Below are positions 15,761-53,967 of a stretch of 64,000 bases of DNA, one piece after another (positions within the stretch are counted from its first letter, which is position 1; the number at the start of each line of letters is the position of its first letter). Below the pieces are notes generated by a model. That model did not search any database. It was not told where the DNA came from and was given only the letters and a program-made list of their open reading frames with translations. The DNA is from Eledone cirrhosa (taxonomy: Eukaryota). The translations under genes were made by a program, and so were the position numbers. The stretch is from assembly GCA_964016885.1 (NCBI GenBank), contig OZ024740.1, positions 212,040,001-212,104,000 of the forward strand. The letters run 5' to 3'.

Positions 15761-15772
15761 AGACAGAAAGAG

Positions 15773-17256: not shown

Positions 17257-17275
17257 TATATCTATCTATCTATCA

Positions 17276-17610
17276 GACGTGTGTAACTTCGCGGAGAAGT
17301 TTCCGTTAATTTATGTAAGAAAAAAACGTGAGTTTTTAGTTAAATTTTATATCATTGTGTAACTTGACCACCCGTCTGAACTTTCAGGTGGTGGGTCAAC
17401 TCATTTTCGCCCCTATAGGGGCGGAATATCCATTTAAAAAATTTTTCTCCATCGAATCTTGGAAAAAATATTGTAAAATTTTGATTACGTTATGAACGCT
17501 GCGTGCAACGATAATGGTGGTGGAGAGGCGGTAAGACTACAAAGCTCGCAGTCAACAACTTCTTCTTCACTAGATACTATAGAGATGGAAAGACAGAATG
17601 AAAATGTAAA
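17276..17610 (+). mobile_element. 5' end (C') of a family-C Tx1 element, inverted relative to C
   Basis: Reverse complement of ~19553-19884 with several substitutions; ORF1 start MNAACNDNGGGEAVR. Confidence 0.9.
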
Positions 17611-19884: not shown

Positions 19885-20126
19885 TGATAGATAGATAGAT
19901 AGATAGATAGATTTCTTTATTTACCATAAAGGCATAAAAAGAAGGGACAAATACAAAGGGGGAGTTTACGTGCAATCGAGTAAAAAGGATATAAAATGAA
20001 AATAATCGAAAATAACCTCAAAAGGGAGGGGACGTGATGGGGGTTGCACACACCCCCGAAAAAGTGTGCAATCCTTTGCCCGGGGAGTACATGGAGAAGG
20101 TGCTCCCCTCTCCTTCACTTTTTTAC

Positions 20127-23100
20127 CTACAGGATGGTATACAGAGAAGGCCCATTTACACGAGCCATTCTCGCCACTATCACCCACCTTTCAGAAAACT
20201 GCCTGTGGCCAAGCACCTCTCTCTCCATTCTTATCCTTCTTCCGAAGTGATATCGGAAGAAGTAGACCAGACTATGGCCAGAGAGGAAGTTGCCTGACCT
20301 CAGACCTTTCAATCGTGTCCAGCAAACAACCTCTTTCAACATGGCTATTACGCACAGAAAAACCCCCTTTGCTTCCTTTGTGAAGAGGGGAGGCGGTTTG
20401 ATTGTCATCACGGACTCGGCGGTCAATTGAATCGGCGCCACCCGCGACAGCAGTCGTTCGGCGTAGCCCCACAGATCAGCCACGCCCGGACATTGCACCA
20501 ATGCGTGCGCAACGGTTTCTTCGTGACGCACGCATCTAGGGAAAATCTTTTTTGAGGGATCCCTGCCCGGGCGCCCGTGTCTGTAGAGCCTCTCTCGAAC
20601 GGGTAGAGCCCCCCGGTAGCACTGCCAGGCTAGTGACTTCTGGAAGTTGTCCATTGGTCCCGGGCCGAAAGTCCTACCGAACAGTCTGGCCAGTTCGTCC
20701 TCTTCCATGTCCAGCGACTCTCCAAGGGTGTCATCGCCCCTGCTAGCCAACAGCCCTCTATAGAATGATGAGGTGGATTCTCCACCGATGGCCTGGCCCC
20801 CTTGCCAGAGAGCCCTGAGCGCCTGAGCACACTCAGTGTGCCAGTCTCCCAGTTTTCCGGATCTTTGCTTGACCCAGGACTGCAGCTCGGTGAGCGAGAC
20901 GAGTCTCGGAAAGGCTCGTTTCACGAACGGAGCCCACACCGGTTGACCAGTGAGGAATACCTGTAGGTGCCGTAGCCTTAATGCGTGCCTACGCATCATC
21001 AACCACGGCATCCCCAGCCCTCCTTTCGAAGGTTGTTGGCAGCAGATGGATCTTCTCACCATAGGAGGGCGCTTCTTCCAAAGAAATTGGAAGAGCATGC
21101 GTTCCATGGTGGTGAGTGTTTCCTTAGGGCAAGGCACGACAGTCAGGCGGTAGTAAGTGACGGACGCTATGTAAATGTTCGCCACCTCCGCCCGGCCTTT
21201 TAGGGACAGCCTACACTTGGCCCATTTCTGGGTTAGTGCAAACACCTTGTTCGTAACCTCGTCCCAGTTCTTTTCCACCTGGAGGTCCGGTCCAAACCAG
21301 ACCGCAAGCAACTTTACCGGGCCCTCCGTCCAGTGTCCGACGACACCGTCGGGAGGCATCGGTCTGCCTCTCCACGTTCTGAGTTGCAACCCGATGGATT
21401 TTTCCTGGTTCAGTTTCGCTCCTGACAACCTTTCGTAATCCTCCAGTAAGGTACCGATCGCCTCGATTTCCGAGTCGGTCGATACCATTACTGTTACGTC
21501 ATCGGCGTAGGCCGACACCGCTTTGCTCAATCCTGGTTCCAGGGGGATACCCTGCAACAACTCTAACTTCCTCAGTAAAGGCTCGAGAGTCAATACGTAC
21601 AGAAGGGAGGAGAGAGGGCACCCCTGTCGAATGGATCGTGTGATTTCGAACGGCTTCGAAAGGTAGCCGTTCACCTTGATCCTAGAACAGATGTGGTTGC
21701 TATGTAAGGCAGTGATCCAGCCTCTGAAAACAGGACCGAACCCAGCCGCCGCTAGCACCGCATCCAGGTAACCATGGTCGACCCTATCGAAGGCCTTAGA
21801 CTGATCCAAGTTGATCAGGGCCCCACCGAAGCCGGGTTTGTTGCCAACCCTCTCTATGATGTATCGCATGAGGTGGAGGTTATCGTGAATGGACCTGGAT
21901 GGGATAGCACATGTCTGCGCATCTCCCACCAGGCCACCCACGACAAGCGCCAACCTCTTTGCTAACACCTTGGCCAAAATCTTTAACTCTGTGTTTAGCA
22001 GGGTTATGGGCCGAAAATTATTTATACTATCCCCTTGTTCTCGTCCTTCCTCACCAGCGAGACTACGCCCTTGGCTACAGAACAAGGAATTCTCCCGTTC
22101 TGCTGCCAATTGCAGTAGACCGCTTCGAGGAGTTCGGAGAAGAAGACCGGCATTGCTAAATAAAATTCGTAAGGTATACCATCGAGACCTGGAGATTTGC
22201 GTCTGCTGCATTGGCTCAGCGCATCTCCGATCTCATCAGCCGAGATTGGTCCCTCGCAGGACTCTGCCTCTTCGCTCGAGAGACGCGGCAGGCCGTCGAG
22301 GTATGGACCGAAATCCACGTCCCCGCCCGGACCCTCGCATCCCCCGAATAATCGGGCAAAGTGCCTTTGAAAGGCCTCGCACATCTGCTTAGGCTCCCGG
22401 ATCACCCGTCCATCCTCGTCTTGCAACGACCGGATGGTTGATCGATTTCCACTCTTAGCTTCTGTCACGCGGGCCCAGCCAACGGCTTTGGCCCCCTCAT
22501 TACCTAGAGCACGTATTTTACTTCGAATGACGCAGCCTTCGTGCTTTGCATCGAAAAACTGGTTCAAGGCCGTCCTCGATGCCAGCACTCTGGCCACATC
22601 TTCGCTCTTGATTGCCTCTTCTAATTTACCTGTTAATTCTTTCTCGTTTCTATTCCTATCGGCAGCTAACATCTTGCTATAACTTATTGATTCTGTTCTA
22701 ATCTCTCTTTTGAGAGATGCCCACCATCGGTTGTTGACGATTGCACCCGTCAACCTCTCCTTAACTAATCTGCTAATCCGGTTTCTGTAAGTCTCTTTTG
22801 CCGGTAAAGACAAATTAAGTTTCCAGTAACCGGGACCCTGTTTATGTGTTTTCTCGAGGTTGACTATGCAGGTCACTAATTTGTGATCCGTATAGCCAAC
22901 CGTGTGCATTTCTGGACAGCTTAATATGTCCCTATCCTTACTTCTAACTAAGAATCTATCTAAGTACGATCTAGATTGACCACTGTGGTTTCTCCAAGTC
23001 CAGGTAGGCACAGTTGGAAAATCTAGTCGATATCTATCGACCAAGTTAAAACGGTCGAGTAACCCCTTGAGGCTGTTACACCCCCCTCTATTAGGACATG

Positions 23101-23562
23101 CTCCTGCATAGTCCCAACGTGCATCTAGGATGTCATTCCAATCCCCCGCTAGAAGCAGGGAACGCGACGTTCCCAGAAAAGTCTCCAAACGCTGGAAGAA
23201 GTCGGGCCGTTCAGCTCCGAAAGGGGAGTAGACGGCGACCAGTCTCAAGGCCGCACCTTCACTACTGCCAACGTCTAGCACCAACAAACGACCCTCCGGG
23301 TCCGAGTGCACAACCTGTACGGCAAGACCCAGGTGTTTTTGCAGCAGTACGACAACCCCACCCCACCTCCAGGTTGACAGAGAGATGCATGCACCTCAAA
23401 GTCATCGAAGGTAGGGGCCAGCTGCCGCACGACGCTGATCCGAGTTTCACAGATAACCATTACATTTATACCACATGACCTGAGGTCATTTAGAAGCTTT
23501 GCTTGCTTCCAAGTTGAGCCCAGGCCACGTGCATTCAAACATCCTACTCTTAACACATCCAT
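20127..23562 (-). pseudogene. ORF2 of D (APE endonuclease + reverse transcriptase), frameshifted near 23300 and 22030
   Basis: VGCLNARGL, ICETR, AGDWN, SYLDRFL, TDH; QGCPLS, YADD. Confidence 0.85.
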
Positions 23563-23596
23563 GTGGGCGGCAGAGCCAAAGGAGAGTGTAGAGACC

Positions 23597-25509
23597 TTAC
23601 CTTTCTGCTTCCCGGGGTTCGGGTCGCACGACTTCCATGGGGTCGGGGGTGTTGGGTGAAGGGGTGTCTTGTGGTGGTGTGGGGTCGTCAGTGTGTGGTG
23701 GGGTTGGGGTGTTTGGAGTTGTGTTGGGGAGGGGAAGGGGAGGGGGAAAGCTTTTTAGTAGGACGCGGTTTATGGGTTTGACAGAGGGTGGTCCTACGTC
23801 CTCCTTAAAATCCTTTTTTAGTTTTTGGTAGAGGTTCATTGGGATCATTATTAATTTTAAATGTGGGTAGTTTTCTGAAGAAACAAAGTTTACACCTTCG
23901 GTTTGTACCGAAGGATTATTGTTTATGAGTTCATTTAATTTATTATTGTTTCTGTTGATGTAAGTATAGTGTAATGTCTTTTTTTCGGATGGTGTGAGTG
24001 TTTCGAAGAGGGGAGGGGCAGGTTTGGTTTTGTTTGTTGCTGGATGGGTGTTTTGTGTTTTGTTGGATTGTGTTGACATTTGGGTGGGGGTTGTTTGGCC
24101 TTGTGTGTTTTGCACATGTTTTCTTTTTTTCCTTTTAATCTGTCTGAAGGACTCCGTTTCTTCCTCCGAATTCGTTGGGTTATCTTCAGTGTTGGAGGGA
24201 AGAGGTATGTTTGCTGGTAATGTTTCCGTGTTGGTTTTCTTTGTGGGGGAGATGGATGTCACTATGTTAGACTGTGTTGTGTGTTGTGGCTGCGGTGGTT
24301 GTGTTGTTTTATTGAGTGAGGGGTTGGGTGGGCCTGTATTTTGTTTTGGGGTAATGTGTTGTGACTGTTTGTGTTGTGGTGGTGGTGTAGTTTAACTGAG
24401 GGACGGGTTGGGTGGGACTGAGTTTTGTTGTTTGTTTATCTGTTGTGGTGGTGGTGGTGGAGCTGGTGTTGGTAGCAGGGTTTTCTTTTTGTTGAGTTGG
24501 GGACAAGCGGCCTTCAGGTGCCCTCTGCCTGCACAGATATGACAGGACGGCCTTCTCTCCTCCACGCTAATGTTTATATACCCGTGGCCCTCTAATAGGA
24601 TTCTGTCGGGTATTTGGGCGATACGTTCAGGCTTCATTTGCACTACCAGCTCTATACCTGTTCCACTGAACGCATTGCCTGTGGTTTTCCCAATGGAAAT
24701 CACGTTGTCATTCACTGGATCGATGAAGCCAGCTATGAGCCAGCAGTAGTCCACATCTGGCATCATTGCATCCAGCCATATGCGTTGAGTTCTTTTACCC
24801 ATATAAGATGGATAAAAGGTAAAATTTTTCGAACGAATCGGTGACAAAGCACATTTTTTGCCGCCGATTCGTTCTTCATAATAATTGCTAGGCGTCCATA
24901 CAGTCTGTCTTTTCTTATTAAAGTGGTTTCATTAAGTACTTCTGTGAGTACTGTTTTGATATCTGTTTGAGTTGGCTGTTCAGGTTTTTTAGAAGTGTTG
25001 TTGATGGTGCGGAACACGACCGTTCGACTTTCAATGTCTTTGGTGAGTTCTTGAGGCATTTTTACCGATAAAATACCATTATCTCCTTCACTTATGTATT
25101 GTTTGGCGTCTGTGATTCTTTGTGCCACATCTGAAATATTTTCAGGTATATATGTCAAAGATTTCTTTGTTGTTTGTGCAAATGAAATCTTGTTGGTGTT
25201 GACTTTGTCGTCTGCTTTGCTTTCTGTTATGATGTTGTTTTCAAATGTTATTTTTGTGTTTGTTGTGTCTTTGTTTGTGGTATTAATATTGTCATGCAAT
25301 TCTTCAAATTTTTTTTTTCGTTGTTGGAATCCATGTCCAGATTTGTGTTTTCGTCATTTTTCTCCGCAGATTCGTCTGTTTTTATTTTATTTTTTCCTTC
25401 CTTCTCTATGACGTTAGTTGGGAAGGAAGGGGGGGGGGACTAAAGCGTGCGAGCTTACAACTCTTACCGCTGTCCCCCCACCACTATTTTCGTTCGCTTC
25501 GTTTAACAT
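23597..25509 (-). pseudogene. ORF1 of D, frameshifted
   Basis: N-terminus homologous to C ORF1; CHICAGRGHLKAAC; C-terminus PMEVVRPEPREAER*. Confidence 0.8.
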
Positions 25510-26037
25510 TTCTGTCAGACGATTGAAATTTTTTTTGCCACAAAATTTTTAAAAACAGGTTTTTCACCCCTAGGAGGGGTAAAGATGAGCTGACCAACCG
25601 CCTGACAGTTAAGACGGGGGGGGGGGGGTCAAGCTACACATAAGTATCAAAATTAAATTTGAACTTACAAAATTTCCGCAATAAATTTGAACAAAACTTC
25701 TGCGCGAAGTGAATTACTTCTACGCTGTAGAACAGACGACAGCTAGATTATATAGATAGATAGATAGATAGATATGTTTCTTTTATTTGCCACCAGGGCA
25801 TCAAAAGTGGGACAAGTACAATGGGGGGAGTTTATAAAACAAGGCGTCCTCAATAAGGAGGAGGCAATAACAAAATATAAAAATAAAATAAAATATAACA
25901 GAATAAAATTTATAACAAAATCCTCAATAGAGAGGAGGCACCTTGGGGGGTCGCACACACCCCCGAAAAAGAGTGTGCAACCCTTTTCCTCAGGAGCACA
26001 GAGAAGGGGTGCTCCCTTGGTCTTTCATCTTCCTCAC

Positions 26038-29000
26038 CTATAGTCTGATGTAGAGTGAAGGCCCATTCACACGGGCCATTCTCGCCACTTTCACCCATCT
26101 TTCATAAAAACGGCTGGGGTGCAGCACCTCTCTCTCCATCCTGATCCTTCTTCCGAAATGATATCGGAAGAAACGAACCAGTTGTTGGCCAGAGAGAAAG
26201 GTGTCTGACCTCAGTCCTTTCAGACGCGTCCATCATACAACCTCTTTCGCCATGGCTATTACGCACAGAAACACCGCCTCTTCTTCGTTTTTGAAGAGGG
26301 GAGACGGCTTGATCGTTACAATAGACTCGGTGGTCAACCGGATAGGTCCCACCCTTGACAGCAGTTGTTCGACATAGCCCCACAGATCGGCAATGCCCGA
26401 GCAGTGTACCAATGCGTGTGCAACGGTTTCCTCGTCGCACACGCATCTGGGACAGATCTTTTTCGAGGGGTCCCTACCCGGGCGCCCGTGTCTGTAGAGG
26501 CTTTCTCGAATGGGCAGAGCCCTTCTGTAGCATTGCCAGGCCAGGGACCTCTGGAAGTTATCCATGGGTCCCGGACTGAATGTCTTACCGAACAGGTTGG
26601 CCAGTTCGTCTTCCTCCATGCCTAGGGCTTCTCCGAGGGCGTCGTCGCACCTGCTAACCACCAGCCCTCTATAGAATGACGAGGTGGATTCTCCACTGAC
26701 AGCCGGGTCCGCCTGCCAGAGAGCCGTGAGAGCCTGGGCACACTCGGTGTGCCAGGCGCCCAGTTTTCTCGGTCTTTGTTTGACCCAGGATTGCAGCTCG
26801 GTGAGTGAGACGAGTCTGGGAAAGGCTCGCCTCACAAACGGGGCCCACACCGGTTGACCGGAGAGGAATACCTGAAGGTGCTGTGGCCTTAATGCGTGTT
26901 TACGTATCATTAGCCACGGCATCCCCAGCCCTCCTTTCGAAGGGTGTTGACAGCAGATGGATCTCCTCACCATAGGAGCCCGCTTCTTCCAAAGGAATTG
27001 GAAGAGTGCGCGCTCCATTTTGGCTAGCGTTTCCCTTGGGCAAGGCACAACGGTCAGGAAGTAGTAGATGACGGACACTATATAAGTGTTCACCACCTCC
27101 GCCCGACCTTTCAGGGACAGTTTGCACTCGGCCCACTTCTGGGTCAGTGCAAACACCCTGTTCGTTACCTCACCCCAGTTCTTCTCCACCTGGAGGGCTG
27201 GTCCGAACCAGACCCCGAGCAACTTCACCGGGCCCTCCGTCCAGCGCCCGACGACACCATCGGAGGGCATCGATCTGCCCCTCCACGTGCCGAGTTGCAG
27301 ACCGATCGACTTGTCCCGGTTCAGCTTAGCCCCTGTAAACCTTTCGTACTCCTCCAGTAAGGTGCCGATCGCCCCGATTTCCGAGGCCGTCGACACCATT
27401 ACTGTTACGTCATCGGCGTAGGCTGACACCGCTTTCCGCAATCCCGATTCCAACGGGATGCCCTGCAACAACTCCAACTTCTGCAGCAGTGGCTCTAGAG
27501 TCATTACATACAGAAGGGAGGAGAGAGGGCACCCCTGTCGGATGGACCGCGCGATTTCGAACGGCTCCGAGAGGTAGCCGTTCACCTTGACCCTAGAGCA
27601 GATGCGGCTGCTGTGCATGGCAGGGATCCAGCCCCTGAAAACGGGTCCGAAGCCTGCCGCCGCTAGCACCGCATCCAGGTAACCATGGTCGACCCTATCG
27701 AATGCCTTAGATTGATCCAAGTTGATCAGGGCCCCACCAAAGCCGGGTTCGTTCCCAACCCTCTCTATGATGTATCGCATGAGGTGGAGGTTGTCGTGGA
27801 TGGACCTGGACGGGATAGCACATGTATGTCTGCGTATCTCTCACCAGGTTACCCACGACAAGCGCCAACCTCTTTGCTAGCACCTTGGCCAAAATCTGTA
27901 ACTCTGTATTTAGGCAGAGTTATGGGCCTGAAATTATTTATATCGTCCCCCTTGTTCTCATCCTTCCTCACTAGCGTGACTACGCCCTTGGTCACAGCAC
28001 AGGGAATTCTCCCGTTCTGTTGCCAGTTGCAGTAGACCGCCTCGAGGAGATCGGGGAACAAGTCCGGCATAGCTAGATATAGTTCGTATGGAAGACCATC
28101 GAGAACCGGGGATTTGCGTTTGCCGCATTGGCTCAGCACGTCATCTATCTCAGCGGCTGAAATCGGCTCCTCGCAGGACTTCGCCTCCCTGTCCGAGAGA
28201 CGCGGCAGCCCGTCGAGGTATGGACCGAAGTCCACATCCCCAACCGGCTTCCCGCCCCTTCCGAACAATCCGGCAAAGTGCTTTTGAAAAGCCTCGCACA
28301 TCTGCTTAGGTTCAAGGATCACCCGTCCTTCCTGGTCTCGCAAAGACCGGATAGTGGATCTGCTCCCTCTTTTTGGCTTCTGTCACGCGGGCCCAGCTAA
28401 CAACTTTGGTCCCCTCGTTTCCCAGAGCACGTATTTTGCTTCGGACGATGCAGCCTTCGTGTTTCGCGTCGAAGAACTGGCCCAGGGCCGTTCTCGAGGC
28501 TAGCACTCTGGCCACGTCGCCGCTTCTAATTGCCTCTTCTACACTATCTACCAACTCCCTTTCCTTCCTATTTCTATTTGAGGCTAACTCCTTACTAAAT
28601 TCTATAGAGACTACTCTAATCTCTCTTTTGAGAGATCCCCACCACCTGCTGTTGACGATGGCGCCCGTCAACCGCTCCTTAACTAAAGTGCTAATCCGGT
28701 CCCTGTAAGCCTTACTTGCCGGTAAGGACAAGTTGAGCTTCCCGTAACCGGGTCCTTGTCTATGAGTTCTGTCAAGGTTGACCATGCAGGTCACTAACTT
28801 GTGGTCTGAATAGCCAACCATGCGCATTTTTGGACAACTTAAAAAGTCATTATCCTTAATTCTAAATAAGAACCTATCTAGGTACGACCTAGATGATCCG
28901 CTACGATTTGCCCAAGTCCAGGTTGACGCAGTCGGAAAATCTAGTCGATATCTATCGGCCAGGTCAAATCGACCGATTAACCCTTTGAGGCTATTACACC

Positions 29001-29481
29001 CCTCTCTATCGGGACAGGCCCCTACGTAGTCCCAGCGTGCATCTAGGATACCATTCCAGTCCCCCACTAATAGCAAGGAGCGGGACGTCCCTAGAAAAGT
29101 CTCCAGACGATGGAAGAAGTCCGGCCGCATTGACCCGAAAGGGCCGTAGGCGGCTACCAACCTAAACGCTCCGCCTTTACCACTGCCAAGGTCCAGAACC
29201 ACTAGTCGACCCTCCGGGTCCAAATGTACCATCTGTGTTGCGAGACCCAGATGTTTTTGCAGCAGAACGACAACCCCACCCCCACCTCCGGGCTGACAGA
29301 GAGATGCGTGCATCTCAAAGTCATCAAAGGTGGGGGCCAGCTGTCGCACGTTGCTGATCCGGGCCTCGCAAATAACCATCACATCTATACGTTGTGACCT
29401 GAGGTCATTTAGAAGCATTGCTTGCTTCCAAGTTGAGCCCAGGCCACGCGCATTTAAACAGCCTACTCTTAGCATGGCCAT
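26038..29481 (-). pseudogene. ORF2 of E (APE + RT), frameshifted with an internal stop
   Basis: ORF pieces 28312..29505, 27849..28343, 26233..27780; ends GPSLYIRL*. Confidence 0.85.
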
Positions 29482-29505
29482 GTTGGTGGTGAAGAGAAAA
29501 GGCAC

Positions 29506-31101
29506 TTACCCCTCTGCGTCCCGGGTATCGGGCTGCACAATTTCCATTAGGGTGGGGTATGGGTTGTTGGGTGGGGTGGTGATTTGTGGAGGTGTAGGGG
29601 CATCAGTGTGTTGTGTGGTTGGGGAGTTTGGAGTTGTGAGGGTGTTTGGGGAGGGGTGGGGTAGTTTTCTAGGAGGACGCGGTTAATGGGCCCGACGCAG
29701 GGGGGGACCCACGTCCTCTTTAAAGTTGTTTTTTAAAGTTTTATAGTTGTCCTGTGGGGCCTTAATCATTTTGAGGTGGGGGAAATCCCCTGCCTGGGTG
29801 AAGTTAGGCCCTTGGGTTTTTATTAGATTGTTGTTGTACACAATGTTTAACAGTTTTTTGTTTCTTGTGTTTATGTATGTGTATGCATGTTTTTGTTTTT
29901 GTGTGGTGTTTTTTGTTTGCTGTTGTTGTGAGCTCTTTTGTGTTGGTGTCAGTGTTATGTTTTGGGGAGGGGTTGTTTTCATTTGTGTGTCTGAGGTGTG
30001 TTTTCTTTTTTTTTCTTTTGATTGTGTGGAAGTGCTCCTCTCGTCTGACGAAGAAACTAGGGTCATCTTCCGCGTTGGAAGGGAGGGGTATATTTTCGGG
30101 TTGTGTTTGCGGTGCGGGTGTTTTGGAAATTATTATTTTTTTTTTAGTGGGGGGGGATGGGTTGGACATTGTTTTGTTTTGGTTTGAGCTGTGGTGGTTG
30201 TTTTTGTAGTGGTAGTTGTGGTGATTGTGTTGGTTTTGCAGTTGTTGGTGGTGTAGGCAGGATTGGGGTTTTCTTATTAAGTTGGGGACAGACAGCCCTC
30301 AGGTGACCTCTGGTTCCGCAGAGGTAACACGAGGGCCGCCTACCCTCAACGGTAATGTTGATGAAAGTTTGATCATCCAGTATGACGCGTTCAGGGATCT
30401 GGGCGATCCTTTCGGGCCTCATTTGAACTACAAGTTCGAGGGTCGTTCCACTGAACGCGTCACCCGATGCCTTTCCCATGGACACCAGCGTGTCATCATC
30501 CAGGTCCAGGAAACCTGTCAAAACCCACCATATGTCCATAATCGGCAGGATGGTGTGGATTTTTATTTTTTGTCTTCTTCTACCCATGTACGTAGGGTAG
30601 AAGGTGTATGCGGTGGATGCGATTGGTTTGATGGACAGTTTCACTGCTGTGTCCCTGTCCTTCATGAGAATGGATAGACTCCCGTAGAGTCTATCCTTCT
30701 GAATGAAGGTGATGTCCTTCATGACGTCTTTTAAAACCAGCTCTATCTCACTCTGTGATGGTTGAGCTGGATTTTTGCTTTTATTCGAGATTGTCCTAAA
30801 CATGACAGTGTTTAGGAGTCTCTGGCTTTTTAGTTCGGGGGGGGGGGGGATGGACCGTGAATGAACCATTTTCCCCGTACACTATATATTTTTTGGCATC
30901 TGCCAGTAGCTCCTTCGCTTTGGTTATATCTACTGGCAGATAGTCGAGGGTTTTCCTTGCCGTCTCGGCGATGGAGAAATTTTTGTTTGTTTGTGTTGCT
31001 GTTGTAGTTGGTGTTGCTGTTGTAGTGACAGTGGCAGGGGGAAGCTGTAAGCTTATCTTCCCCTTTCCTCCTTCGAATTTTGGTGAAGATGCTTCAGCCA
31101 T
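29506..31101 (-). pseudogene. ORF1 of E, frameshifted (one shift in a G-run at ~30840)
   Basis: CYLCGTRGHLRAVC knuckle; C-terminus LMEIVQPDTRDAEG*. Confidence 0.8.
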
Positions 31102-35855: not shown

Positions 35856-36322
35856 TTCGTAAGTCCAACACCCTTACCACTAGGCCACATGCCTGGGTAG
35901 TAACGTTATCCATCACACACACACACACACATACACACACACACACATACACACTCACACACACATACACACACACACTGACACACACAAGTAATCGATA
36001 TTAAAAGATTAGGTCTCTTATTAAAAACATTTAGCTGAACAATGAAAGTTTGTTGTTTTTTTTTATCAATCTTTTATTTAACCAAGTTTTTTTTATGTAT
36101 ATTCCGATAAAAACGAAATACTCTCGAGTCCCCCAAAATAGGGAGTGGAATGAGAATGAAATGAGAGGATGGAATATGCGGAGGGAAGGGGGGAATAAGC
36201 GGGTTTGGAAAATCGGTAATTTTTTTAGGTTGTCTCCCTTGATGTAAATATAACAACAAAAACAGTTAGTCGTTTAGTTTACACGTTGAGACCCCAACTC
36301 ATCCTATTTATTTTATAACATA

Positions 36323-37221
36323 CTAGCAGTAAAGCCCGGCGTTGCTCGGGGTCGCTCAGTAGCTGTGTTAAAGTTACAATGTTAAGTTTCTTTCTTGGCT
36401 TAAAAACTGTAGTGTCTACTGTTCAGACTTGCATGTGGTGTTTTTGATTAATATTCCCTCAACCAACAATATGCCTTATGAAGTTAAGAAAACAACGATA
36501 ACCCGAATGTTATAACAAAAGAGGATGCTGGGGATAGAAACTGCACTGGTTATTTATTAACAAAGATCGAAAATGTAAACACTGCAACGCAGAGAAAAAC
36601 ATTAGCGTAACCAAATTATCAGTTATGTCTGTCTGCCCGCCTATATCACCTCTCTGCACGACTGTCTGTCTGCACGCCTATATCACCTCTCTGCACGACT
36701 GTCTGTCTGCACGCCTATATCACCTCTCTGCACGACTGTCTGTCTGCACGACTGTCTGTCTGCACGCCTAACGAAATTTACAGATACATATATTTTAAAT
36801 AAACTTATATAATTTTTGCTTTTTTTTACGAAATATTTGCTTGTTTTACGTAGTCTTTAAATAGACTTGTTTTCAAGTAAAAATATTGTTTTAAAATGCT
36901 TTTAAATGGAAATGAAGCAAAACGGAAGCTTAGTGTTCGAACTGTCATTTTAAACGCTGAGAATGCCAGCGTAATTTTTTACGTAAAACGCTCAATGTAA
37001 ACAGAACAAAGGGAAATAACTGATAACTTACGCTCAAAAATCGATACATTATATTCGATTTCGTCACATAGGGTGGGTCAATTTTAAATTTTTTTTTTTC
37101 CGATGTCTTCGCTCAATGTACAAGTCTAGCAATTTCGGTGCAATTCCGTGAGAGATTCTAAGAGGAGATGTGTGCCAAAAATCGATAGACAGACAGACAA
37201 CCACAGCTTTATATATATAGA
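36323..37221 (-). mobile_element. Non-autonomous Helitron
   Basis: A|TCTATATATATAAAG 5' end, GTCT repeats, subterminal hairpin CCCGAGCAACGCCGGG, CTAG|T 3' end, no TSD; internal ~36-bp tandem repeats 36627-36770. Confidence 0.85.
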
Positions 37222-37581
37222 TGTGATTTCTAGTAATGTACTTTTGGGATCATGTATAATATTATTTAATGTCTAAAGAAAATTGTCTCAGGACTGCTAC
37301 CACTTGAAATAAAATTTCGCGGCGACAGAGTAGCAAAATTTAATAACCAGGGGGAGGGGGGGGGGTATGACAAATTAACAAGTTGGTGGGTGGTGGGGTT
37401 GATTATTCGAGCGCTGAGAGTAACTCAAATGACTGGCATTGCAAGGACTTCAAAGCTGGATATTATGACCGCAATTGATTTCTTTAGTAAGTCTATATTT
37501 GTTGTTATAGTAACAGCAACATAAACAGCAGTAAGTAAATAGATTTTTAGTTTTAGTCCCCAATGTAAAAAAAAGTGTGTG

Positions 37582-37659
<78 letters not shown>

Positions 37660-38245
37660 CTTATATACAAATGTATGTATAAATGTATCTATCTAAGTAT
37701 GTATATGTATATATTTTTTCTCTCTCTATATATATATATACGCAAGGGCCTTGCTTCAGGGATGTTCAAACGTCCATGTTTTATTTTTTGTTTATTTGAA
37801 ATAATAGATTCTTTTTAAGCTTATTTTTTTAATATCTGAACTTCATTTGAATATATAAAATTTAATAAGCGTAAAATGTTATGTATGTATGTCTATATGT
37901 ATATATGCATGTATGTATGTGTGTATGTTTATTTAATTCCTTTATACTCGTCTCTTCAGATGATGATGATGATGAACTATCTTTAGCAAATAATTTATTT
38001 AATGGAATTCTTTCATGGAAACATTTCATTGTCTACATACATACATACATACATACATACATACATACATACATGGTGGCTGCCAACTCGTTTTCGAGTA
38101 CGGCCACTACTTTATATCCATGTAGGAGAACCCTTACCGATGCGCTGAACGAGTGTGACTTTTTAGTCCAGCCAGCGACTTGAAAACTCTGGTACAAACA
38201 CTACATACATACATACATACATACATACATACATACATACATACA

Positions 38246-38278
<33 letters not shown>

Positions 38279-38351
38279 GTATATATATATACATACATAT
38301 ATGTATATATATATACATACATATATGTATATATATATATATACATATATG

Positions 38352-38396
<45 letters not shown>

Positions 38397-38682
38397 AAAT
38401 AACGAAACGAAATTAAATTTCGTTTCGTTTGTAACTCACTTTTGTATGACTGACGCTTAAACAATTAAGTTAAAAATGTACATCCACATATGTATACTGA
38501 AATACTAGTATGCATATGAATACACACACGTGTACATATGTAGATGTACCGAGTTTTCACTGGTCACTTTACTGTGAGTGTCCAGCTATTCTGTATGTAA
38601 ACACACAGACAAACCGGTTTTTAGAGTCATACCGGTTTTTGAGGAAACACCTTTCCTCTATTCTCCAGAAAGCCAGACAAGG

Positions 38683-38727
38683 AATATTGGACTAGTTTCG
38701 ATGTTGTTACATCTCATCAGCAATATT
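38683..38727 (-). ncRNA. Minimal type I hammerhead ribozyme
   Basis: Reverse complement of 39578-39622. Confidence 0.85.
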
Positions 38728-39577
38728 TACCTATCTTCCGGCCTCTCTAGAGAATCGTGAAAGCACATATCGTTATATGCTTTTTCTATGAAAATTAGTA
38801 GTGGGCAGACCAATTTGCATAGAGCGTGAGTACGTACCGGTTCAACGGAGACGATAAAAACAAATAACGAAACGAAATTAAATTTCGTTTCGTTTGTAAC
38901 TCACTTTTGTATGACTGACGCTTAAACAATTAAGTTAAAAAAGTGTACATCCACATATGTATACTGAAATACTAGTATGCATATGAATACACACACGTGT
39001 ACATATGTAGATGTACCGAGTTTTCACTGGTCACTTTACTGTGAGTGTCCAGCTATTCTGTATGTAAACACACAGACAAACCGGTTTTTAGAGTCATACT
39101 GGTTTTTGAGGAAACACCTTTCCTCTATTCTCCAGAAAGCCAGACAAGGAATATTCCTTGTCTGGCTTTCTGGAGAATAGAGGAAAGGTGTTTCCTCAAA
39201 AACCAGTATGACTCTAAAAACCGGTTTGTCTGTGTGTTTACATACAGAATAGCTGGACACTCACAGTAAAGTGACCAGTGAAAACTCGGTACATCTACAT
39301 ATGTACACGTGTGTGTATTCATATGCATACTAGTATTTCAGTATACATATGTGGATGTACACTTTTTTAACTTAATTGTTTAAGCGTCAGTCATACAAAA
39401 GTGAGTTACAAACGAAACGAAATTTAATTTCGTTTCGTTATTTGTTTTTATCGTCTCCGTTGAACCGGTACGTACTCACGCTCTATGCAAATTGGTCTGC
39501 CCACTACTAATTTTCATAGAAAAAGCATATAACGATATGTGCTTTCACGATTCTCTAGAGAGGCCGGAAGATAGGTA

Positions 39578-39622
39578 AATATTGCTGATGAGATGTAACA
39601 ACATCGAAACTAGTCCAATATT
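39578..39622 (+). ncRNA. Minimal type I hammerhead ribozyme
   Basis: AATATTG-CTGATGA-GATG-taacaa-CATC-GAAA-CTAG-TC^-CAATATT; predicted cleavage after 39615. Confidence 0.9.
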
Positions 39623-39839
39623 CCTTGTCTGGCTTTCTGGAGAATAGAGGAAAGGTGTTTCCTCAAAAACCAGTATGACTCTAAAAACCGGTTTGTCTGT
39701 GTGTTTACATACAGAATAGCTGGACACTCACAGTAAAGTGACCAGTGAAAACTTGGTACATCTACATATGTACACGTGTGTGTATTCATATGCATACTAG
39801 TATTTCAGTATACATATGTGGATGTACATTTTTAACTTA

Positions 39840-39886
<47 letters not shown>

Positions 39887-40236
39887 TTAACATTTAATTG
39901 TTTCTACTTTTGGCACAAATCCAGCAATTATCACAGTGCATTACTGGTACTTTATACTTAACATTTAATATTCTATTTCACTCTAATACCATTATAAATT
40001 TTATAAATTTATACCATTATAAATTTATATATGTATGTGTATATATATATGTGTATATATATATATATATTGTTATATTTGGGGAGGGTCATATTTGCGT
40101 AATATTGCCAGAATTAATAACAGAACACACTCACTGTTTGGTTGGTTTTCGCTTCTCGCTGTCTTTTATATATATATATCTGCGATCTAACTTACTCGGT
40201 CCTCAATGTTGCCATTGACTGACCGGCGGTCAAAAA

Positions 40237-40850
40237 TAATACAGATACAATATAGACACAAACACATATATATAGTTTACATAATTTACATAAATCTTTC
40301 GTTGCACATCTGCAACATCGTCAGTGGTGTTATATTCATTGTTCCTCCTGTTGTGTTGTATGTCTACGCCATTTTTTTGTTCAGTCTGTCTATATATTTA
40401 TTTATTTATTTGCTTGTTTGTTTATCTTATTTTATTTTGTCTTCTTTGCGCATGCGTTTGCGTGTGTGTATAGTGTTATGTGTGATGTGTGACTAGTGTG
40501 TATAGTGTTGTGTCTGCTGGGTGACTAGTGTATGTTTATGTGCTTGTGTATGTATTTATTTATCTTATTTTATTTAATTTTATTTACTTATTTATACTTC
40601 TCTTAGGTCAGTGTTGTTTGTTTGGGTGTTGTTGTTGTTCCACTCATTCTTTCTGTTTAGCTTTGGTCTTCTAATTTCTATTTCACTGGCCTCTCTGATT
40701 TGCCTATCTGCTGGGTCATTCCTATGTTTAGATATTATTCAATGAATATAACACCACTGACGATGTTGCAGATGTGCAACGAAAGATTTATGTAAATTAT
40801 GTAAACTATATATATGTGTTTGTGTCTATATTGTATCTGTATTATTTTTG
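40237..40850. mobile_element. Penelope 3' relic with inverted pLTR copies and a hammerhead core at 40757
   Basis: ~40237-40340 inverted at ~40740-40850; CTGACGA-tGTTGCA gatg TGCAAC-GAAA; GIY-YIG C-terminal relic on minus strand ~40640-40740. Confidence 0.65.
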
Positions 40851-41433
40851 ATGCACGTCCATGCCAGCAAATACACAGGTTATGTCATAGTACCTAGGTG
40901 GTTCAATGCAGGAGGATGCAGAACAATAATATAAAAGACGTAAATTAAGAAAATATTTAAAAAAAAATTTTTTTAATTTTTTTTACTTACTTACTTAAAT
41001 TTTCACTCCAACTAATTAGTTTCTGCAATGGGATAAAGACAGTTACGTATCCTCCTGCATTGAACCACCTAGGTACTATGACATAACCTGTGTATTTGCT
41101 GGCATGGACGTGCATCTGTGCGCTTATGCTAGTTGATATATTAAATTATCTATATTTATCTCCAAATCACTGATTTGTCGAGCAAACCTGCCAAAACCAC
41201 TTCTAAATTTTTTTGGGTGTTAGTAGGCGTCAGTCATCTTACCATCCCATTCCTTCTAACTAGCCTCTGTGTCACGTGATTGATTCTTTAGAATCGGCCA
41301 TTTGACTAGAAGCAGTGAGAATTTCAGTACATGGAATCCAGTCCTCGCTAGCTGTTCTATCTACCGAATTATTATTATTTTTATATGAGCCGCCAGTGTC
41401 CGCGCATTGCCTGGAGACTCAGCTGAGAATAGA

Positions 41434-41513
41434 CTCCCTGATGACGCAATGAATTCTCGACAGTTGGATTACGTAACTGTCTTTATCCCATTGCAGAAAC
41501 TAATTAGTTGGAG
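41434..41513 (+). ncRNA. Hammerhead ribozyme related to 4451-4534, in rearranged pLTR repeats 40850-41700
   Basis: CTCC-CTGATGA-cGCAATG...CATTGCa-GAAA-CTAATTAG-TT-GGAG. Confidence 0.75.
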
Positions 41514-41709
41514 TGAAAATTTAAGTAAGTAAGTAAAAAATTTGTTAAAAATTTAAAAAAAAATATTTTCTTAATTTACGTCTTTTATATTATTGTTCTG
41601 CATCCTCCTGCATTGAACCACCTAGGTACTATGACATAACCTGTATATTTGCTGGCATGGACGTGCATCTGTGCGCTTATGCTAGTTGATATATTAAATT
41701 ATCTATCTA

Positions 41710-41769
<60 letters not shown>

Positions 41770-41805
41770 GATGAAATAAAGATGGTTATAAGAGTTCCAT
41801 ATATT

Positions 41806-41867
41806 TTATTATACGTATTTCGAATACAAAATCATCCTGGGACAGATGTTGTGTTCTCTTCAGATAA
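41806..41867 (-). ncRNA. Hammerhead ribozyme
   Basis: Minus strand: TTAT-CTGAAGA-GAAcACAA...TTGTATTC-GAAA-TACGTA-TA-ATAA. Confidence 0.65.
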
Positions 41868-41959
41868 AAAATAAGGTACAATGATATGAGGCATAATAGC
41901 ACTTGTTTATAGGAAAGTGCTAAGTCTACATATTTCATTGTTCTAGAATATTACTCACC

Positions 41960-42064
<105 letters not shown>

Positions 42065-42306
42065 CAGAAGGGATATTCAATTTGTTGGTAATGTTTATAT
42101 AACTAATTCAGAGCACTCTACAGGTTTTCTGGAGTATAATATACAATGATATTAAATAAATGGAAACTATATTTATCAAACCATATTTATTCCATTATAT
42201 ATATTTCAAGGGTCCCAAAATTTTGGTACGCTATCATCAGATAAAATACGAAGTGTGTTTTATAAATTTTGACTTAACCAAAGAGAATATACCTTAACGG
42301 TTCAAG

Positions 42307-42358
42307 TTATCTGATGATAGCGTACCAAAATTTTGGTACCCTTGAAATATATATAATA
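42307..42358 (+). ncRNA. Hammerhead ribozyme with inverted copy at ~42143-42244
   Basis: TTAT-CTGATGA-..GTACCAAAA TTTTGGTAC..-GAAA-TATATA-TAAT. Confidence 0.65.
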
Positions 42359-42522
42359 GAATAAATATGGTTTTATAAATATAGTTTCCATTTATTTAAT
42401 ATCATTGTATATATATATATATATAATTAAAATACAAATATTAATAAAATAGATGTTCCTTTGATCAATTAAATTTTATTATAAATATTTCTTTGATGTA
42501 CTCATTGAATCTTCTTTAACTC

Positions 42523-42638
<116 letters not shown>

Positions 42639-42742
42639 TGTTTTCCGTTGTGTTGTAATATAAATATTACACACAGTAGATTATCAGCTCACGTAGAGTT
42701 TGCTCGACGGTTCCAGTTGTAGTTCCAAAAGTAATCCGGAGA

Positions 42743-44478
42743 AAAATAGAAAGATTTGAATGGATACAGTTTAGTTGAAAGGAATTTATTGACACGTGTT
42801 TCTATAACAGTTACATAACCTAAAACAGCTGCTATCTACAAACTTTTAGTTATGCAGGCATTCAATATTTCAATGTTATTATTTACTGTCATTTCATCAG
42901 AATAATATTACTGAGGACCTATTTAGTTTTTATAGAGAATATTAGGAGGGAGGGGTGAAGTTGTTAGAAGAATAGTTGAAGGAGTGGTTTTTCGATAGCA
43001 GTGAGAATTCTAGGTGGCAGTGAGTAATTAGATTCCCATCTGTTGTTTTGACATTTTTTATAGAATATATTATTGGTCATTTTTCTAAATTTATAGAAGG
43101 ATTAGAGATAGTAAAGATATGCGTGGTTGGTTTTGTGTTTGCACTTAATTAACATTCAGACTTAAATTTTTCTTTCAAGTGTACGTATCCTTTCACCCAC
43201 GCATTCACACACAAATATATTTGCACACCTCTACAAAATACATATACTCACAATTCACATATTCATACTTACATATATATACACATGCATACACATATAT
43301 ATACACACATGTATTCATGTACATACTTACGCGCTCGTGTGTATACATTTTCATACTCAACTTATCTTTATATACACACGTATAGACACACACAAGCGAT
43401 GCAAAGAGTACTTATGGTATAACCCCGAATACAATAGTTCCATTAGTACAAATTTACCAGTACTCTTCTTTAAAATAATTAAAAGACATTTTCCCACATC
43501 ACACAAATACCACAAAATCCTAAACCCTACCACTATAAGACTGTCATACTCTACAGCGTTAAACCTTGAACAACACATAAAAAAGATCAATACTAGAAGG
43601 TTAAACGAAAACACTAAGAACTTAAGTACAAAGAACACAAAAAAACAGTAGACAATACACTACAGAACATAAATAAACCACACCTAAGTTCGTCCGCAAT
43701 ACTACTCCAGAGAAAACCCAACGTACACAACTGTAACTGCACCTATCCTGACAACTGCCCCCTCGGCAATAACTGCCTGGAAAAAAATATTATTTATAAG
43801 TGTACCATTAAATCCGGAGGCAACGAGTGGTATTACGTGGGATCAACGGCAACATCGTTTAAATCTCGATTGTATAGGCATTCTTACTCAATAAAACACC
43901 AGAGCCAAAGAAATGTAACAACTTTAGCAGAAAAAGCTTGGACGCTCAGGGATAGCGATCAAAAGTTTACCCTAAAATGGGAGAAATTAGCTAAAACCCA
44001 AAGCTTTTCCAGGAGCCAAAATTTCTGCAAATTGTGTAATCTTGAGATTTATTACATAATCACACACAAGAAGAAACTGCTGAATAACAGAATTGAACGA
44101 ACATTATTCTGCCGTCACAGAACTAAAACCCTTTTTTCCCACTACAAGCCGAATATTACATAAAAGAGGGACATCCCCCAACTATATAAACCTTAATCTA
44201 GTTAGAAAAATATAAAAACAATCTCTTCTCAACATATATTAATAACCTTAAATTACCACACTAATAATGGAAAGATATGCTGATGAGAATAGGTGCAAAT
44301 ATGCGATAATGAATGTGTCTAAAAACGTCCATAAGTATGTATATATATGTGAAAATGTATATAAATAAGTAAATATATATATATGTTTGATGTGTATAGT
44401 TAGATGTAAGTGTATTCATGTATTAAAGTGCTTATATATATGTATATATGTGTGTGTATGTATGTGTATGTATGTATA

Positions 44479-44565
<87 letters not shown>

Positions 44566-45291
44566 GTGTATATGTATGTATATGTGTGTATATAGATGTG
44601 TATGTATGTGTATGTGTGTACACATGGACTAGAGTAAGTATGTATATATGTGTGTGTCTATACGTGTGTATATAAAGATAAGTTGAGTATGAAAATGTAT
44701 ACACACGAGCGCGTAAGTATGTACATGAATACATGTGTGTATATATATGTGTATGCATGTGTATATATATGTAAGTATGAATATGTGAATTGTGAGTATA
44801 TGTATTTTGTAGAGGTGTGCAAATATATTTGTGTGTGAATGCGTGGGTGAAAGGATACGTACACTTGAAAGAAAAATTTAAGTCTGAATGTTAATTAAGT
44901 GCAAACACAAAACCAACCACGCATATCTTTACTATCTCTAATCCTTCTATAAATTTAGAAAAATAACCAATAATATATTCTATAAAAAATGTCAAAACAA
45001 CAGATGGGAATCTAATTACTCACTGCCACCAAGAATTCTCACTGCTATCGAAAAACCACTCCTTCAACTATTCTTCTAACAACTTCACCCCTCCCTCCTA
45101 ATATTCTCTATAAAAACTAAATAGGTCCTTAGTAATATTATTCTGATGAAATGACAGTAAATAATAACATTGAAATATTGAATGTCTGCATAACTAAAAG
45201 TTTGTAGATAGCAGCTGTTTTAGGTTATGTAACTGTTATAGAAACACGTGTCAATAAATTCCTTTCAACTAAACTGTATCCATTCAAATCT

Positions 45292-45293
<2 letters not shown>
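42743..45293 (+). mobile_element. 5'-truncated Penelope element with inverted pLTR; GIY-YIG at ~43410-44163
   Basis: WYNPEY, NCNC..CPLGNNCL, YVGSTATSFKSRLYRH, CKLCNLE; ~650-bp arms 42743-43393 / 44650-45293; hammerhead-like core at 45143. Confidence 0.85.
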
Positions 45294-45341
<48 letters not shown>

Positions 45342-45471
45342 GTGTATGCGTGTGTGTGTATATATGTATTTATGTGTGTGGTTATCTGCGTGTGTTCATT
45401 TGTATTCTTGCATGCTTGAATATGTTTATATTTACACTGGACACATACATGCATGTATCTATATGTAGTAT

Positions 45472-47182
45472 TGCCCTCTCTCCTCCCTTCTGTACGTATT
45501 GACTCTCGAGCCTTTACTGAGGAAGTTGGAGTTGTTGCAGGGTATCCCCCTGGAACCAGGATTGAGCAAAGCTGTGTCGGCCTACGCCGATGACGTAACA
45601 GTAATGGTATCGACCGACTCGGAGATCGAGGCGATCGGTACCTTACTGGAGGATTACGAAAGGTTGTCAGGAGCGAAACTGAATCGGGAAAAATCCATCG
45701 GGTTGCAACTCGGAACGTGGAGAGGCAAACCGATGCCTCCCGACGGTGTCGTCGGACACTGGACGGAGGGCCCGGTAAAGTTGCTTGGGGTCTGGTTTGG
45801 ACCGGACCTCCAGGTGGAAAAGAACTGGGACGAGGTTACGAACAAGGTGTTTGCACTAACCCAGAAATGGGCCAAGTGTAGGCTGTCCCTAAAAGGCCGG
45901 GCGGAGGTGGCGAACATTTACATAGCGTCCGTCACTTACTACCGCCTGACTGTCGTGCCTTGCCCTAAGGAAACACTCACCACCATGGAACGCATGCTCT
46001 TCCAATTTCTTTGGAAGAAACGCCCTCCTATGGTGAGAAGATCCATCTGCTGCCAACAACCTTCGAAAGGAGGGCTGGGGATGCCGTGGTTGATGATGCG
46101 TAGGCACGCATTAAGGCTACGGCACCTACAGGTATTCCTCACTGGTCAACCGGTGTGGGCTCCGTTCGTGAAACGAGCCTTTCCGAGACTCGTCTCGCTC
46201 ACCGAGCTGCAGTCCTTGGTCAAGCAAAGATCCGGAAAACTGGGAGACTGGCACACTGAGTGTGCCCAGGCGCTCAGGGCTCTCTGGCAAGCGAGCCCGG
46301 CCATCGGTGGAGAATCCACCTCATCATTTTATAGAGGGCTGGTGGCTAGCAGGGGCGAAGACACCCTTGGAGAGTCGCTGGACATGGAAGAGGACGAACT
46401 GGCCAGCCTGTTCGGTAGGACTTTCGGCCCGGGACCAATGGACAACTTCCAGAAGTCACTAGCCTGGCAGTGCTACCGGGGGGCTCTACCCGTTCGAGAG
46501 AGGCTCTACAGACACGGGCGCCCGGGCAGGGATCCCTCGAAAAAGATTTGCCCTAGATGCGTGCGTCACGAAGAAACCGTTGCGCACGCATTGGTGCAAT
46601 GTCCGGGCGTGGCTGATCTGTGGGGCTACGCCAAACGACTGCTGTCGCGGGTGGCGCCGATTCGATTGACCGCCGAGTCCGTGGTGACAATCAAGCCGCC
46701 TCCCCTCTTCACAAAGGAAGCAAAGGCGGTTTTTCTGTGCGTAATAGCCATGTTGAAAGAGGTTGTTTGGTGGACACGATTGAAAGGTCTGAGGTCAGGC
46801 AACTTCCTCTCTGGCCATAGTCTGGTCTACTTCTTCCGATATCACTTCGGAAGAAGGATAAGAATGGAGAGAGAGGTGCTTGGCCACAGGCAGTTTTATG
46901 AAAGGTGGGTGATAGTGGCGAGAATGGCTCGTGTAAATGGGCTTTCTCTGTATACCATCCTGTAGGTAAAGAAGTGAAGGAGAGGGGAGCACCTTCTCCA
47001 TGTGCTCCCCGGGCAAAGGATTGCACACTTTTTCGGGGGTGTGTGCAACCCCCATCACGTCCCCTCCCTTTTGAGGTTGTTTTCGATTATTTTCATTTTA
47101 TACCCTTTTTACTCGGTGTTATGTAAACTCCCCCTTTGTATTTGTCCCTTCTTTTTATGCCTTTATGGTAAATAAAGAAATA
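45472..47182 (+). mobile_element. 5'-truncated family-D Tx1 copy with 15-bp target-site duplication
   Basis: ORF 45499..46965 nearly identical to D ORF2; TSD TATATGTAGTATTGC at 45460-45474 and 47183-47197. Confidence 0.93.
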
Positions 47183-52388: not shown

Positions 52389-52465
52389 ATATATATAGTG
52401 GTGGAACACTGGAAGGTAATATCCATAGTGGTAGAGCACTTAGTACAAGGGACGAGTTAGGTAGA

Positions 52466-53953
52466 AGTGGTTACACAACAGTTAGTTCACCATACCGAGA
52501 ACAATTATTTCACCTTAGCGGATCTTCAGCTCGGAATGGGCATGGTATAGGAACAGGAAGGACAACCGTACGAACGCGCATGCGCAGAAACCCGGTCACT
52601 TCACACAGGCAATACTAGACTGCGTGCGAGAGGTGTAAGGGAGAACACTGCGAAAGTCCGAAAAGTTTTTAGGTTGAAAATAAAATTACAAAGAATCAGT
52701 CCGGAGCCTTGTAGTTATGCAATAGGTATTTGGCGACGTGTGAACAACGTGTGAAAAATTCACTTCTCGTGTTTAGGCAATCACTATTGCGTAATCTCTT
52801 TAGAATAGTTATTCGTTCGTCAATACATAAGCCACACGTCGTATTTCCCCTTGCGTATGGCTTGGACTTAGTAATGGCTTTCCATTGAATGGAGTAGTCT
52901 ATACTTGAGTCCTTGAGGGACCATACGTGGCTCGCGAGTTTCGTGGATGAACGTCTGTCTTGGTATCTGAAGGTAGACTGGTGGTTCAGGAAACGTTCCT
53001 TGAATCGGCCCTCCGCCATGCCCACATAGGATTTGACCTGTGGTTCGTTTGGTCGGTTGGAAGTGACCACAGCTTCATAGATTACAGCTGGTGTGTTGCA
53101 TTGCTGTTGAAGGGGGAAAGCTTCAGGCTTACGGCAAGAGCACCCTGGTGGGGTGTTGCTCCTAGGGCTGCTGGTGATGTGGGCCTTCATGTTCTTAGCG
53201 CAGGAGTATCCTAGTTTAACTTTGTGTCGGTTAAAGATGGAGCGGTATTTATGACCTATGGGGAAGTGTCTATCTAAGAGGGCTAGAATTTTTTTCCTAC
53301 ATTGGTTTTAAGGTTGAGTGAGAAGGGAGGAGAGAACCAGATAGTTTGTCTATTGTTGCGCTTACTTTTCTTAATGGTGTTGTTGCTAGTGGGAGAGTAA
53401 GTGATAGGTTGTGAGAAGCCGCTGTTAGCCAACGCCGTGTTATAGTGGGGTGCCGCCCTGTCAAAGATAGCCTTATTAGAGGAGAGGTTTGAGATTCTAG
53501 TACTGATATTCTTAACGAACTTTCTAAAAACAGTGGGAGGGTACATGTGGGGTTAGAAGTAAAGTCTACCTTGTGATCTTTCAGGGTGAGGAACACCTCC
53601 CGCTTAGCTAGAGATTGAACCACCAGTCTACCTTCAGATACCAAGACAGACGTTCATCCACGAAACTCGCGAGCCACGTATGGTCCCTCAAGGACTCAAG
53701 TATAGACTATTCCATTCAATGGAAAGCCATCACTAAGTCCAAGCCATACGCAAGGGGAAATTCGCAGTTATCTCCCTTACACCTCTCGCACGCAGTCTAG
53801 TATTGCCTGTGTGAAGTGACCGGGTTTCTGCGCATGCGCGTTCGTACGGTTGTCCTTCCTGTTCCTATAACCATGCCCATTCCGAGCTGAAGATCCGCTA
53901 AGGTGAAACAATTGTTCTCGGTATGGTGAACTAACTGTTGTGTAACCACTTCT
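52466..53953 (-). mobile_element. Penelope (Neptune-type) 3' fragment with inverted pLTR and inverted internal segment
   Basis: VIYEAVV...YVGMAEGRFKERF, CGLCIDER; ~53770-53953 inverts ~52466-52640; ~53597-53760 inverts ~52845-52990. Confidence 0.85.
53882..53921 (+). ncRNA. Minimal hammerhead ribozyme in Penelope pLTR; inverted copy ~52495-52534
   Basis: CCGAG-CTGAAGA-tCC gctaa GGt-GAAA-CAATTG-TT-CTCGG. Confidence 0.75.
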
Positions 53954-53967
53954 ATATATATATATAA

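Follow-up and report, generated by a model that had tools for sequence, protein, structure and literature searches.

A spacerless head-to-head retrozyme palindrome in Eledone cirrhosa with its axis at the predicted hammerhead cleavage end

The window analyzed here, a 64-kb stretch of the Eledone cirrhosa genome (assembly GCA_964016885.1, contig OZ024740.1, positions 212,040,001 to 212,104,000), contains a spacerless head-to-head inverted repeat whose axis lies between positions 39152 and 39153 (Table 1). From the axis outwards the two arms pair perfectly over 519 bp, and they differ by two mismatches in 692 bp, the substitutions at 38633/39672 and 38551/39754. The left arm outruns the mirror image of the right end by ~68 nt that are still unit sequence; (TA)n is found at both ends, and a target-site duplication is unreadable inside it. 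The flanks are not mirrored and share microsatellite likeness only. This analysis confirms that the palindrome is real and correctly located; of the extent given in the initial annotation (38392..39844) the right end stands, but the palindrome proper starts at 38461, and positions 38393–38460 form the one-sided tail. Just inside the terminus of this tail is a 29-bp perfect hairpin (38401–38429), a candidate for protein binding by a Penelope-like element (PLE) or for a start signal.

Table 1. Features of the palindromic insertion and of the neighboring insertions (window coordinates).
Feature	Positions	Strand	Remarks
Left target (TA)n	38355..38392	.	terminates a longer TACA/TA microsatellite
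One-sided tail, ~68 nt	38393..38460	-	unit nt ~232–299; ends at the second recurrent 3' terminus
Left arm, 1.5 units, antisense on +	38461..39152	-	
Mirror hammerhead, type I	38683..38727	-	junction uncut; 38689 is the first nt after the cut
Axis AATATT, without spacer	39150..39155	.	nt 2–7 of the predicted cleaved RNA, helix I 3' strand
Single complete 467-bp unit	39150..39616	+	37% GC; longest ORF 61 codons; strongly folded
Right arm, 1.5 units	39153..39844	+	ends at the first recurrent 3' terminus
Type I hammerhead	39578..39622	+	predicted cut after 39615
Right target (TA)21	39844..39885	.	
Inner ends of the seven neighbors	4296/4380, 9245/9343, 40341/40740, 41049/41470, 42244/42307, 43394/44649, 52988/53616		
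PLE fragment	42636–45297		GIY-YIG-like ORF 43618–44160; 649-bp inverted arms 99% alike
Another non-coding family, head-to-head, two members 74% alike	4093–4680 and 40850–41706		cores at 4455 and 41438
Four further head-to-head PLE-like insertions	9087–9540, 40176–40850, 42062–42417, 52400–53954		

The arms are built from a 467-bp unit with a predicted folding energy of −157 kcal/mol (z −10; 0 of 100 shuffles folded as well). Both complete unit junctions carry a type I hammerhead with all core nucleotides: helix I of 7 bp, CUGAUGA at 39585, helix II of 5 bp, GAAA at 39606, a helix III of 1 bp with a palindromic CUAG loop, and the cleavage site GUC^, with 39616 as the first nucleotide past the predicted cut. 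When the window was scanned on both strands with a structure-aware search, this hammerhead, its mirror, and one weak unrelated match were returned; on the antisense strand of the unit the scan found no ribozyme. The match to the Rfam model Hammerhead_HH9 (38.9 bits, E 5.6e-8) does not reach the gathering score of 52, and at the gathering threshold Rfam gives no match across the window. Matches to miRNA and sRNA models at the axis, all with scores below threshold, were rejected as hairpin artefacts. Each arm contains one complete ribozyme, the upstream one being truncated at the axis, and this copy lacks the two consecutive units with complete ribozymes by which Li et al. define ‘active’ copies; this bears on the activity of the copy, not on its family membership.

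The ribozyme had been described as a canonical minimal hammerhead; it is a hammerhead, but of the dimer type with a 1-bp helix III. The min-HHR of PLEs, defined by the absence of helix III and an extra base between positions 9 and 10.1 (Cervera 2014; definitions in PMC4209133), is ruled out by the 1-bp helix III with its tetraloop and by the lack of the extra base. Type I hammerheads with a 1–2 bp helix III and a palindromic loop are described as poor cutters alone that function as dimers (PMC4209133, PMC7229834). Closure of helix III in the monomer is computed to cost ~6 kcal/mol, whereas two copies would pair at −6.2 kcal/mol; this fits a partly cut multimer in which one internal ribozyme stays uncut. 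Cleavage is a prediction here, and the computed cost of helix III and the in vitro cleavage reported for only one of nine dimers of frog retrozymes (bioRxiv 10.64898/2026.07.22.740005) count against a role for the cut.

The initial annotation had called the palindrome retrozyme-like, and this is supported; judged by its sequence, the unit is a metazoan non-LTR retrozyme, and it would work like a non-autonomous PLE. The features of a retrozyme are the type I hammerhead, the short (467 bp, 37% GC) non-coding tandem unit, and a dispersed multi-copy family; those of mobilization by a PLE are the inverted 5' structure, the one-sided tail, and the AT-rich target. The unit lacks an ORF with RT plus GIY-YIG, so it is not an autonomous PLE, and a tRNA-like head is absent (no tRNA genes in 36000–42000). 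It shares with the metazoan non-LTR retrozymes described so far (Cervera and de la Pena 2020, PMC7229834; Li et al. 2026, bioRxiv 10.64898/2026.07.22.740005) non-coding tandem units of a few hundred bp with low GC, a weak helix III with a palindromic tetraloop (like axolotl HHR_Amex1), strong folding, high copy number, and co-occurrence with PLEs. The unit is 467 bp long, whereas 150–450 bp are described (up to 972 in Li et al.); furthermore, the described retrozymes are plain tandems instead of a head-to-head palindrome, and the word ‘inverted’ does not occur in the main text of PMC7229834.

The family was followed in public sequencing runs. Words of the unit are present in 20 runs of 16 studies, seven of which contain at least half of the words; four of the 24 listed runs (X1, X2, X23, and X24) were aligned to one unit. 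In X1, the species of which may differ from that of the window, 934 of 16,285,364 contigs match the unit, with other flanks; 460 are alike at 99+%, 334 at 95–99%, and 140 at 90–95%. Among the six of 34 loose ends listed for this run, 12 contigs break off behind 39451 and continue as (TA)n, and four break off behind 39366 with a TA-rich continuation unlike the flank in the window. These loose ends match the two termini in the window, so both termini are features of the family. Summed contig depth in X1 between the cut and the tail end exceeds that between the tail end and the next cut 1.7-fold; depth is not copy number and dips at variant sites, but a step of this kind would be expected were many copies to extend from the cut to the terminus, a hint only. 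No loose end at 39616–39622 is found among the six of 34 listed, and no strand-changing joint is listed for X1, where contigs made from 31-letter words extend only ~15 letters past a perfect axis; we infer that axis-bearing copies collapse into one contig in such an assembly. In X2, a single low-depth contig of 495 nt closes on itself with a 465-nt unit, for which tandem DNA accounts as well as a circle does. In the Hi-C runs X23 and X24, none of the 12,836,656 reads in each matches the unit.

The arms also share variants. A 2-nt indel is mirrored, that is, the outer units are both short and the inner units both long, from which one multimeric template had been deduced. The mirroring holds, but the deletion is a frequent allele of the family (49% of summed depth and 15 contigs in X1); because it is a common polymorphism, the mirrored indel alone is weak evidence for a shared template. 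Position 39494 carries a minority letter in both arms (94% of the depth in X1 has another letter), and this shared allele together with the 519-bp identity indicates a single source sequence for both arms, although ‘one template’ may mean one locus rather than one molecule.

The window holds seven other head-to-head insertions. All seven have spacers (62–1254 bp), their ends face outwards as in the palindrome, and their outer termini are unequal, with tails of ~35–110 nt where both ends are readable. Two of them hold fragments of GIY-YIG-like ORFs; the protein-cluster Atlas gave GIY-YIG clusters at 0.95–0.96 for the fragments, as leads. Pfam gave no family for three such fragments, and a search with the neighboring GIY-YIG-like fragment found no homologue at 1e-10 among 54 candidates. 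The PLE fragment in Table 1 is bordered by (TA)n on either side, has a tail of 110 nt, and carries a hammerhead whose helix II is ~90 nt long (core at 45143, cut before 45253, mirror at 42900). The hammerheads of the other non-coding family have a long helix II, a palindromic helix III, and a UU cut site; the four further insertions have hammerhead-like cores, intact or decayed, and one-sided tails. At 40850 one insertion is nested in or abuts another. A comparison of the unit with nine PLE-like end stretches of the window gave no match above shuffles (the best was reached by two of 100 shuffles), and no autonomous partner PLE was found among these end stretches. The window also contains related L1/Tx1-type non-LTR elements clustered in tandem and inverted order (12300–30900, 45469–46965, and 61925–63431), with RVT_1 and weak zf-RVT. 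The L1/Tx1-type ORFs, the TA microsatellites, and a few mollusc labels among the Atlas leads suggest a molluscan host, perhaps a cephalopod.

In none of the five neighbors with a placeable cut (four placed by the scan, one by eye) does the insertion turn at the cut; in all five the inverted half stops 40–604 nt upstream of it. The cut therefore does not set the inversion points of PLEs in general, and the suggestion that the palindrome is a general clue to the inverted pLTRs of Penelope elements fails on these five and on the spacers of all seven neighbors. The spacers also imply that, as a rule, each half stops on its own; the lack of a spacer suggests instead that both halves reached a physical template end that they shared.

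The axis of the palindrome does lie at the cut. The AATATT at 39150–39155 is that of 39617–39622 minus 467, which confirms the assignment of the axis to nt 2–7 of the predicted cleaved RNA one unit upstream of 39617; nt 1 (C) of this RNA is missing at the axis. An AATATT self-duplex is predicted at −4.6 kcal/mol, and no hairpin is predicted for the 3' terminal 16 nt of the cDNA.

We consider it somewhat probable that a high-copy non-LTR retrozyme, mobilized in trans by a PLE, was inserted here recently, with two primings on cut linear multimers joined via AATATT. A tandem source locus would be transcribed, and incomplete cleavage of the transcript by the dimer-dependent hammerhead would leave linear RNAs that start at a cut 5' end, retain one internal ribozyme uncut, and comprise two units with slight differences. 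The PLE protein would nick both strands of (TA)n and prime reverse transcription twice, as known PLE biochemistry suggests, and the primings would fall at the two start sites of the family ~68 nt apart, both of which are recurrent termini. Because the RNA is short, both cDNAs would probably reach its physical 5' end rather than a random stop; the last base would be lost, and the cDNA 3' ends with the self-complementary AATATT would anneal or be end-joined and then filled in. Of the run-off and joining of cDNA that had been proposed earlier, the position of the axis at the cut end stands and annealing through the helix I strand is likely, but a fold-back with zero loop is unlikely, given that a fold-back needs a loop and no cDNA hairpin is predicted. 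The indel sets the inner units apart from the outer ones, which excludes a monomeric circle copied twice around as the template of this copy; its anatomy, a hint from one copy, points to a self-cut linear heterodimer as the template and not to a circle, in contrast to the rolling-circle copying of circRNA proposed for retrozymes (PMC7229834, Li et al. 2026).

Several observations on PLEs bear on this reading. The inverted 5' copy, the one-sided tail, and (TA)n targets are the signature of endonuclease-bearing PLEs (PMC8557442, PMC3846280), and the palindrome shares with these elements (Arkhipova 2013, PMC3846280; Craig 2021, PMC8557442; Frangieh 2024, PMC11167929) the head-to-head copy, a palindromic junction, the one-sided tail, the (TA)n target, and the absence of a readable duplication. 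It differs from them in that it has no ORF, its tail is ~68 nt instead of the 30–40 nt described, both halves end at the same base, and the junction falls on the predicted ribozyme cut. [quoted passage not shown] The same source reports that in vitro uncut RNA is the main template, that ribozyme mutants are inserted normally, and that no RNA-seq reads start or end at the PLE hammerhead cut; together these argue against a role for the cut. A more general proposal, that in this family cut linear multimers (possibly paired in a double hammerhead via the palindromic helix III) normally serve as the templates in vivo when a PLE primes from two ends and that cut-anchored palindromes recur, is tentative and on balance doubtful; as part of it, the cut may fix the turning point and helix I supply the sticky end.

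Two primings are also invoked for LINE-1, where twin priming at one target site produces a 5' inversion with microhomology at its joint. In that case the same RNA is primed a second time at an internal position, and the 3' end is not repeated in the inverted piece, whereas here both halves start at 3' start sites. Palindromic head-to-head junctions of PLEs are already in print, explained by self-priming on the antisense strand (PMC3846280). A full-text search of the literature, with supplements, Repbase, and some older PLE papers outside its scope, found neither an inversion point placed at a hammerhead cut nor a description of palindromic retrozyme insertions.

Double priming is not the only route to such a structure. 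A single cDNA, primed at the tail end and run off the cut 5' end, could have turned around and copied itself, by a template jump or by snap-back with 1–3 paired bases; either the endonuclease or a joint with the other target end would then have resolved it ~68 nt short. We regard this as unlikely, even though it gives the zero spacer and the identical arms directly, fits the 519-bp identity and the shared minority allele, and agrees with PMC8557442, where the tail is ascribed to endonuclease resolution; it likewise requires the cut end. No hairpin is predicted for the cDNA 3' end, a loop-free turn would be sterically poor, the halves of the seven spacer-bearing neighbors start at different points, unlike self-copies, and the shorter end is a recurrent terminus of the family.

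A role for the cut at all could be an illusion, that is, an ordinary PLE inversion might have been joined at one of many short palindromes. The unit contains 17 palindromes of at least 6 bp, so that the one at the cut would be used by chance in 1/17 (6%), and an axis within the first ten unit positions has a chance of 10/467 (2%). Palindromic junctions are common in PLEs (PMC3846280), none of the five neighbors turns at its cut, and this case was singled out from many repeats only after the fact. Eight of the 17 palindromes are, however, longer (8–10 bp) than AATATT and would have made better joints, yet the one used is that at the cut; the depth step at the cut in X1 is a further hint. An uninvolved cut is slightly less credible still than a cDNA turn-around. 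That the coincidence of axis and cut is more than chance is suggestive and not proof, because it is one copy noticed after the fact; it is plausible that this single turn records the use of a cut linear template in vivo.

Near-perfect spacerless palindromes are a known artefact of long-read sequencing and amplification, and the axis is known here from the assembled sequence alone. A library fold-back chimera or a mis-assembly is nevertheless very improbable. The initial annotation had already taken the differences between the arms as an argument against it, and the two private substitutions bear this out. Moreover, the flanks are not mirrored, the arms end at two different termini, each independently recurrent (a strong argument), the architecture is common to the seven neighbors, and an artefact would have no reason to turn at nt 2–7.

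Self-priming on an antisense transcript (after Arkhipova et al. 2013), the published hypothesis for head-to-head palindromic junctions in PLEs (PMC3846280), is equally remote for this copy; the antisense strand carries no ribozyme that would fix its 3' end at nt 2–7, and both outer ends resemble start sites on a sense template. A DNA-level fold-back at the two helix I strands is rejected because it would retain the ribozyme core as a spacer, and break-and-fusion is rejected by the unmirrored flanks.

The formation of the tandem and inverted structures of PLEs is described as ‘still undefined’ (PMC8557442), and a palindrome anchored at the cut bears on it. It also bears on the role of PLE hammerheads in transposition, which are not needed in vitro (PMC11167929) while circRNA has been proposed as the template (PMC7229834). 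A short, very abundant, and young family that leaves the cut end in DNA makes both questions testable by counts of junctions. Should the axis prove not to recur, the locus would be no more than an ordinary retrozyme insertion; should cut-anchored palindromes recur, as in the more general proposal above, they would be a genomic footprint of PLE/retrozyme hammerhead function and would directly support the view that the inverted repeats of PLEs arise by two-ended priming. Insertions of this kind would also introduce perfect hairpins of 700 bp (putative dsRNA and cruciforms).

Near-identical words of the unit occur in runs labeled with 17 organisms. Horizontal transfer was not adopted as an explanation: X2 offers one low-depth contig, the two raw runs of organism D are without matches, and four of 24 runs were aligned. 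Contamination or diet is as likely, and low-level host DNA is also possible. The X2 contig differs at 39518 and 39532, both A>G on the ribozyme strand and one of them in UAG, and the arm difference at 38633 is likewise A>G in the RNA sense; these are compatible with templates edited from A to I and equally with ordinary alleles. A 21-nt pattern of the family had no match in the metagenome, viral, and prokaryote collections. A generic hammerhead pattern identified 118 metagenome stretches; among 117 loci, which are unrelated elements, many with 300-nt flanks, none has an opposite-strand copy of the sequence after the cut. Seven metagenome contigs of 0.96–1.5 kb (L035, L043, L065, L067, L084, L090, and L106) carry the same dimer-type hammerhead at a spacing of 490–1370 nt, in some of them with hammerhead copies that differ by one or two letters; these contigs appear to be retrozyme-like or viroid-like circles.
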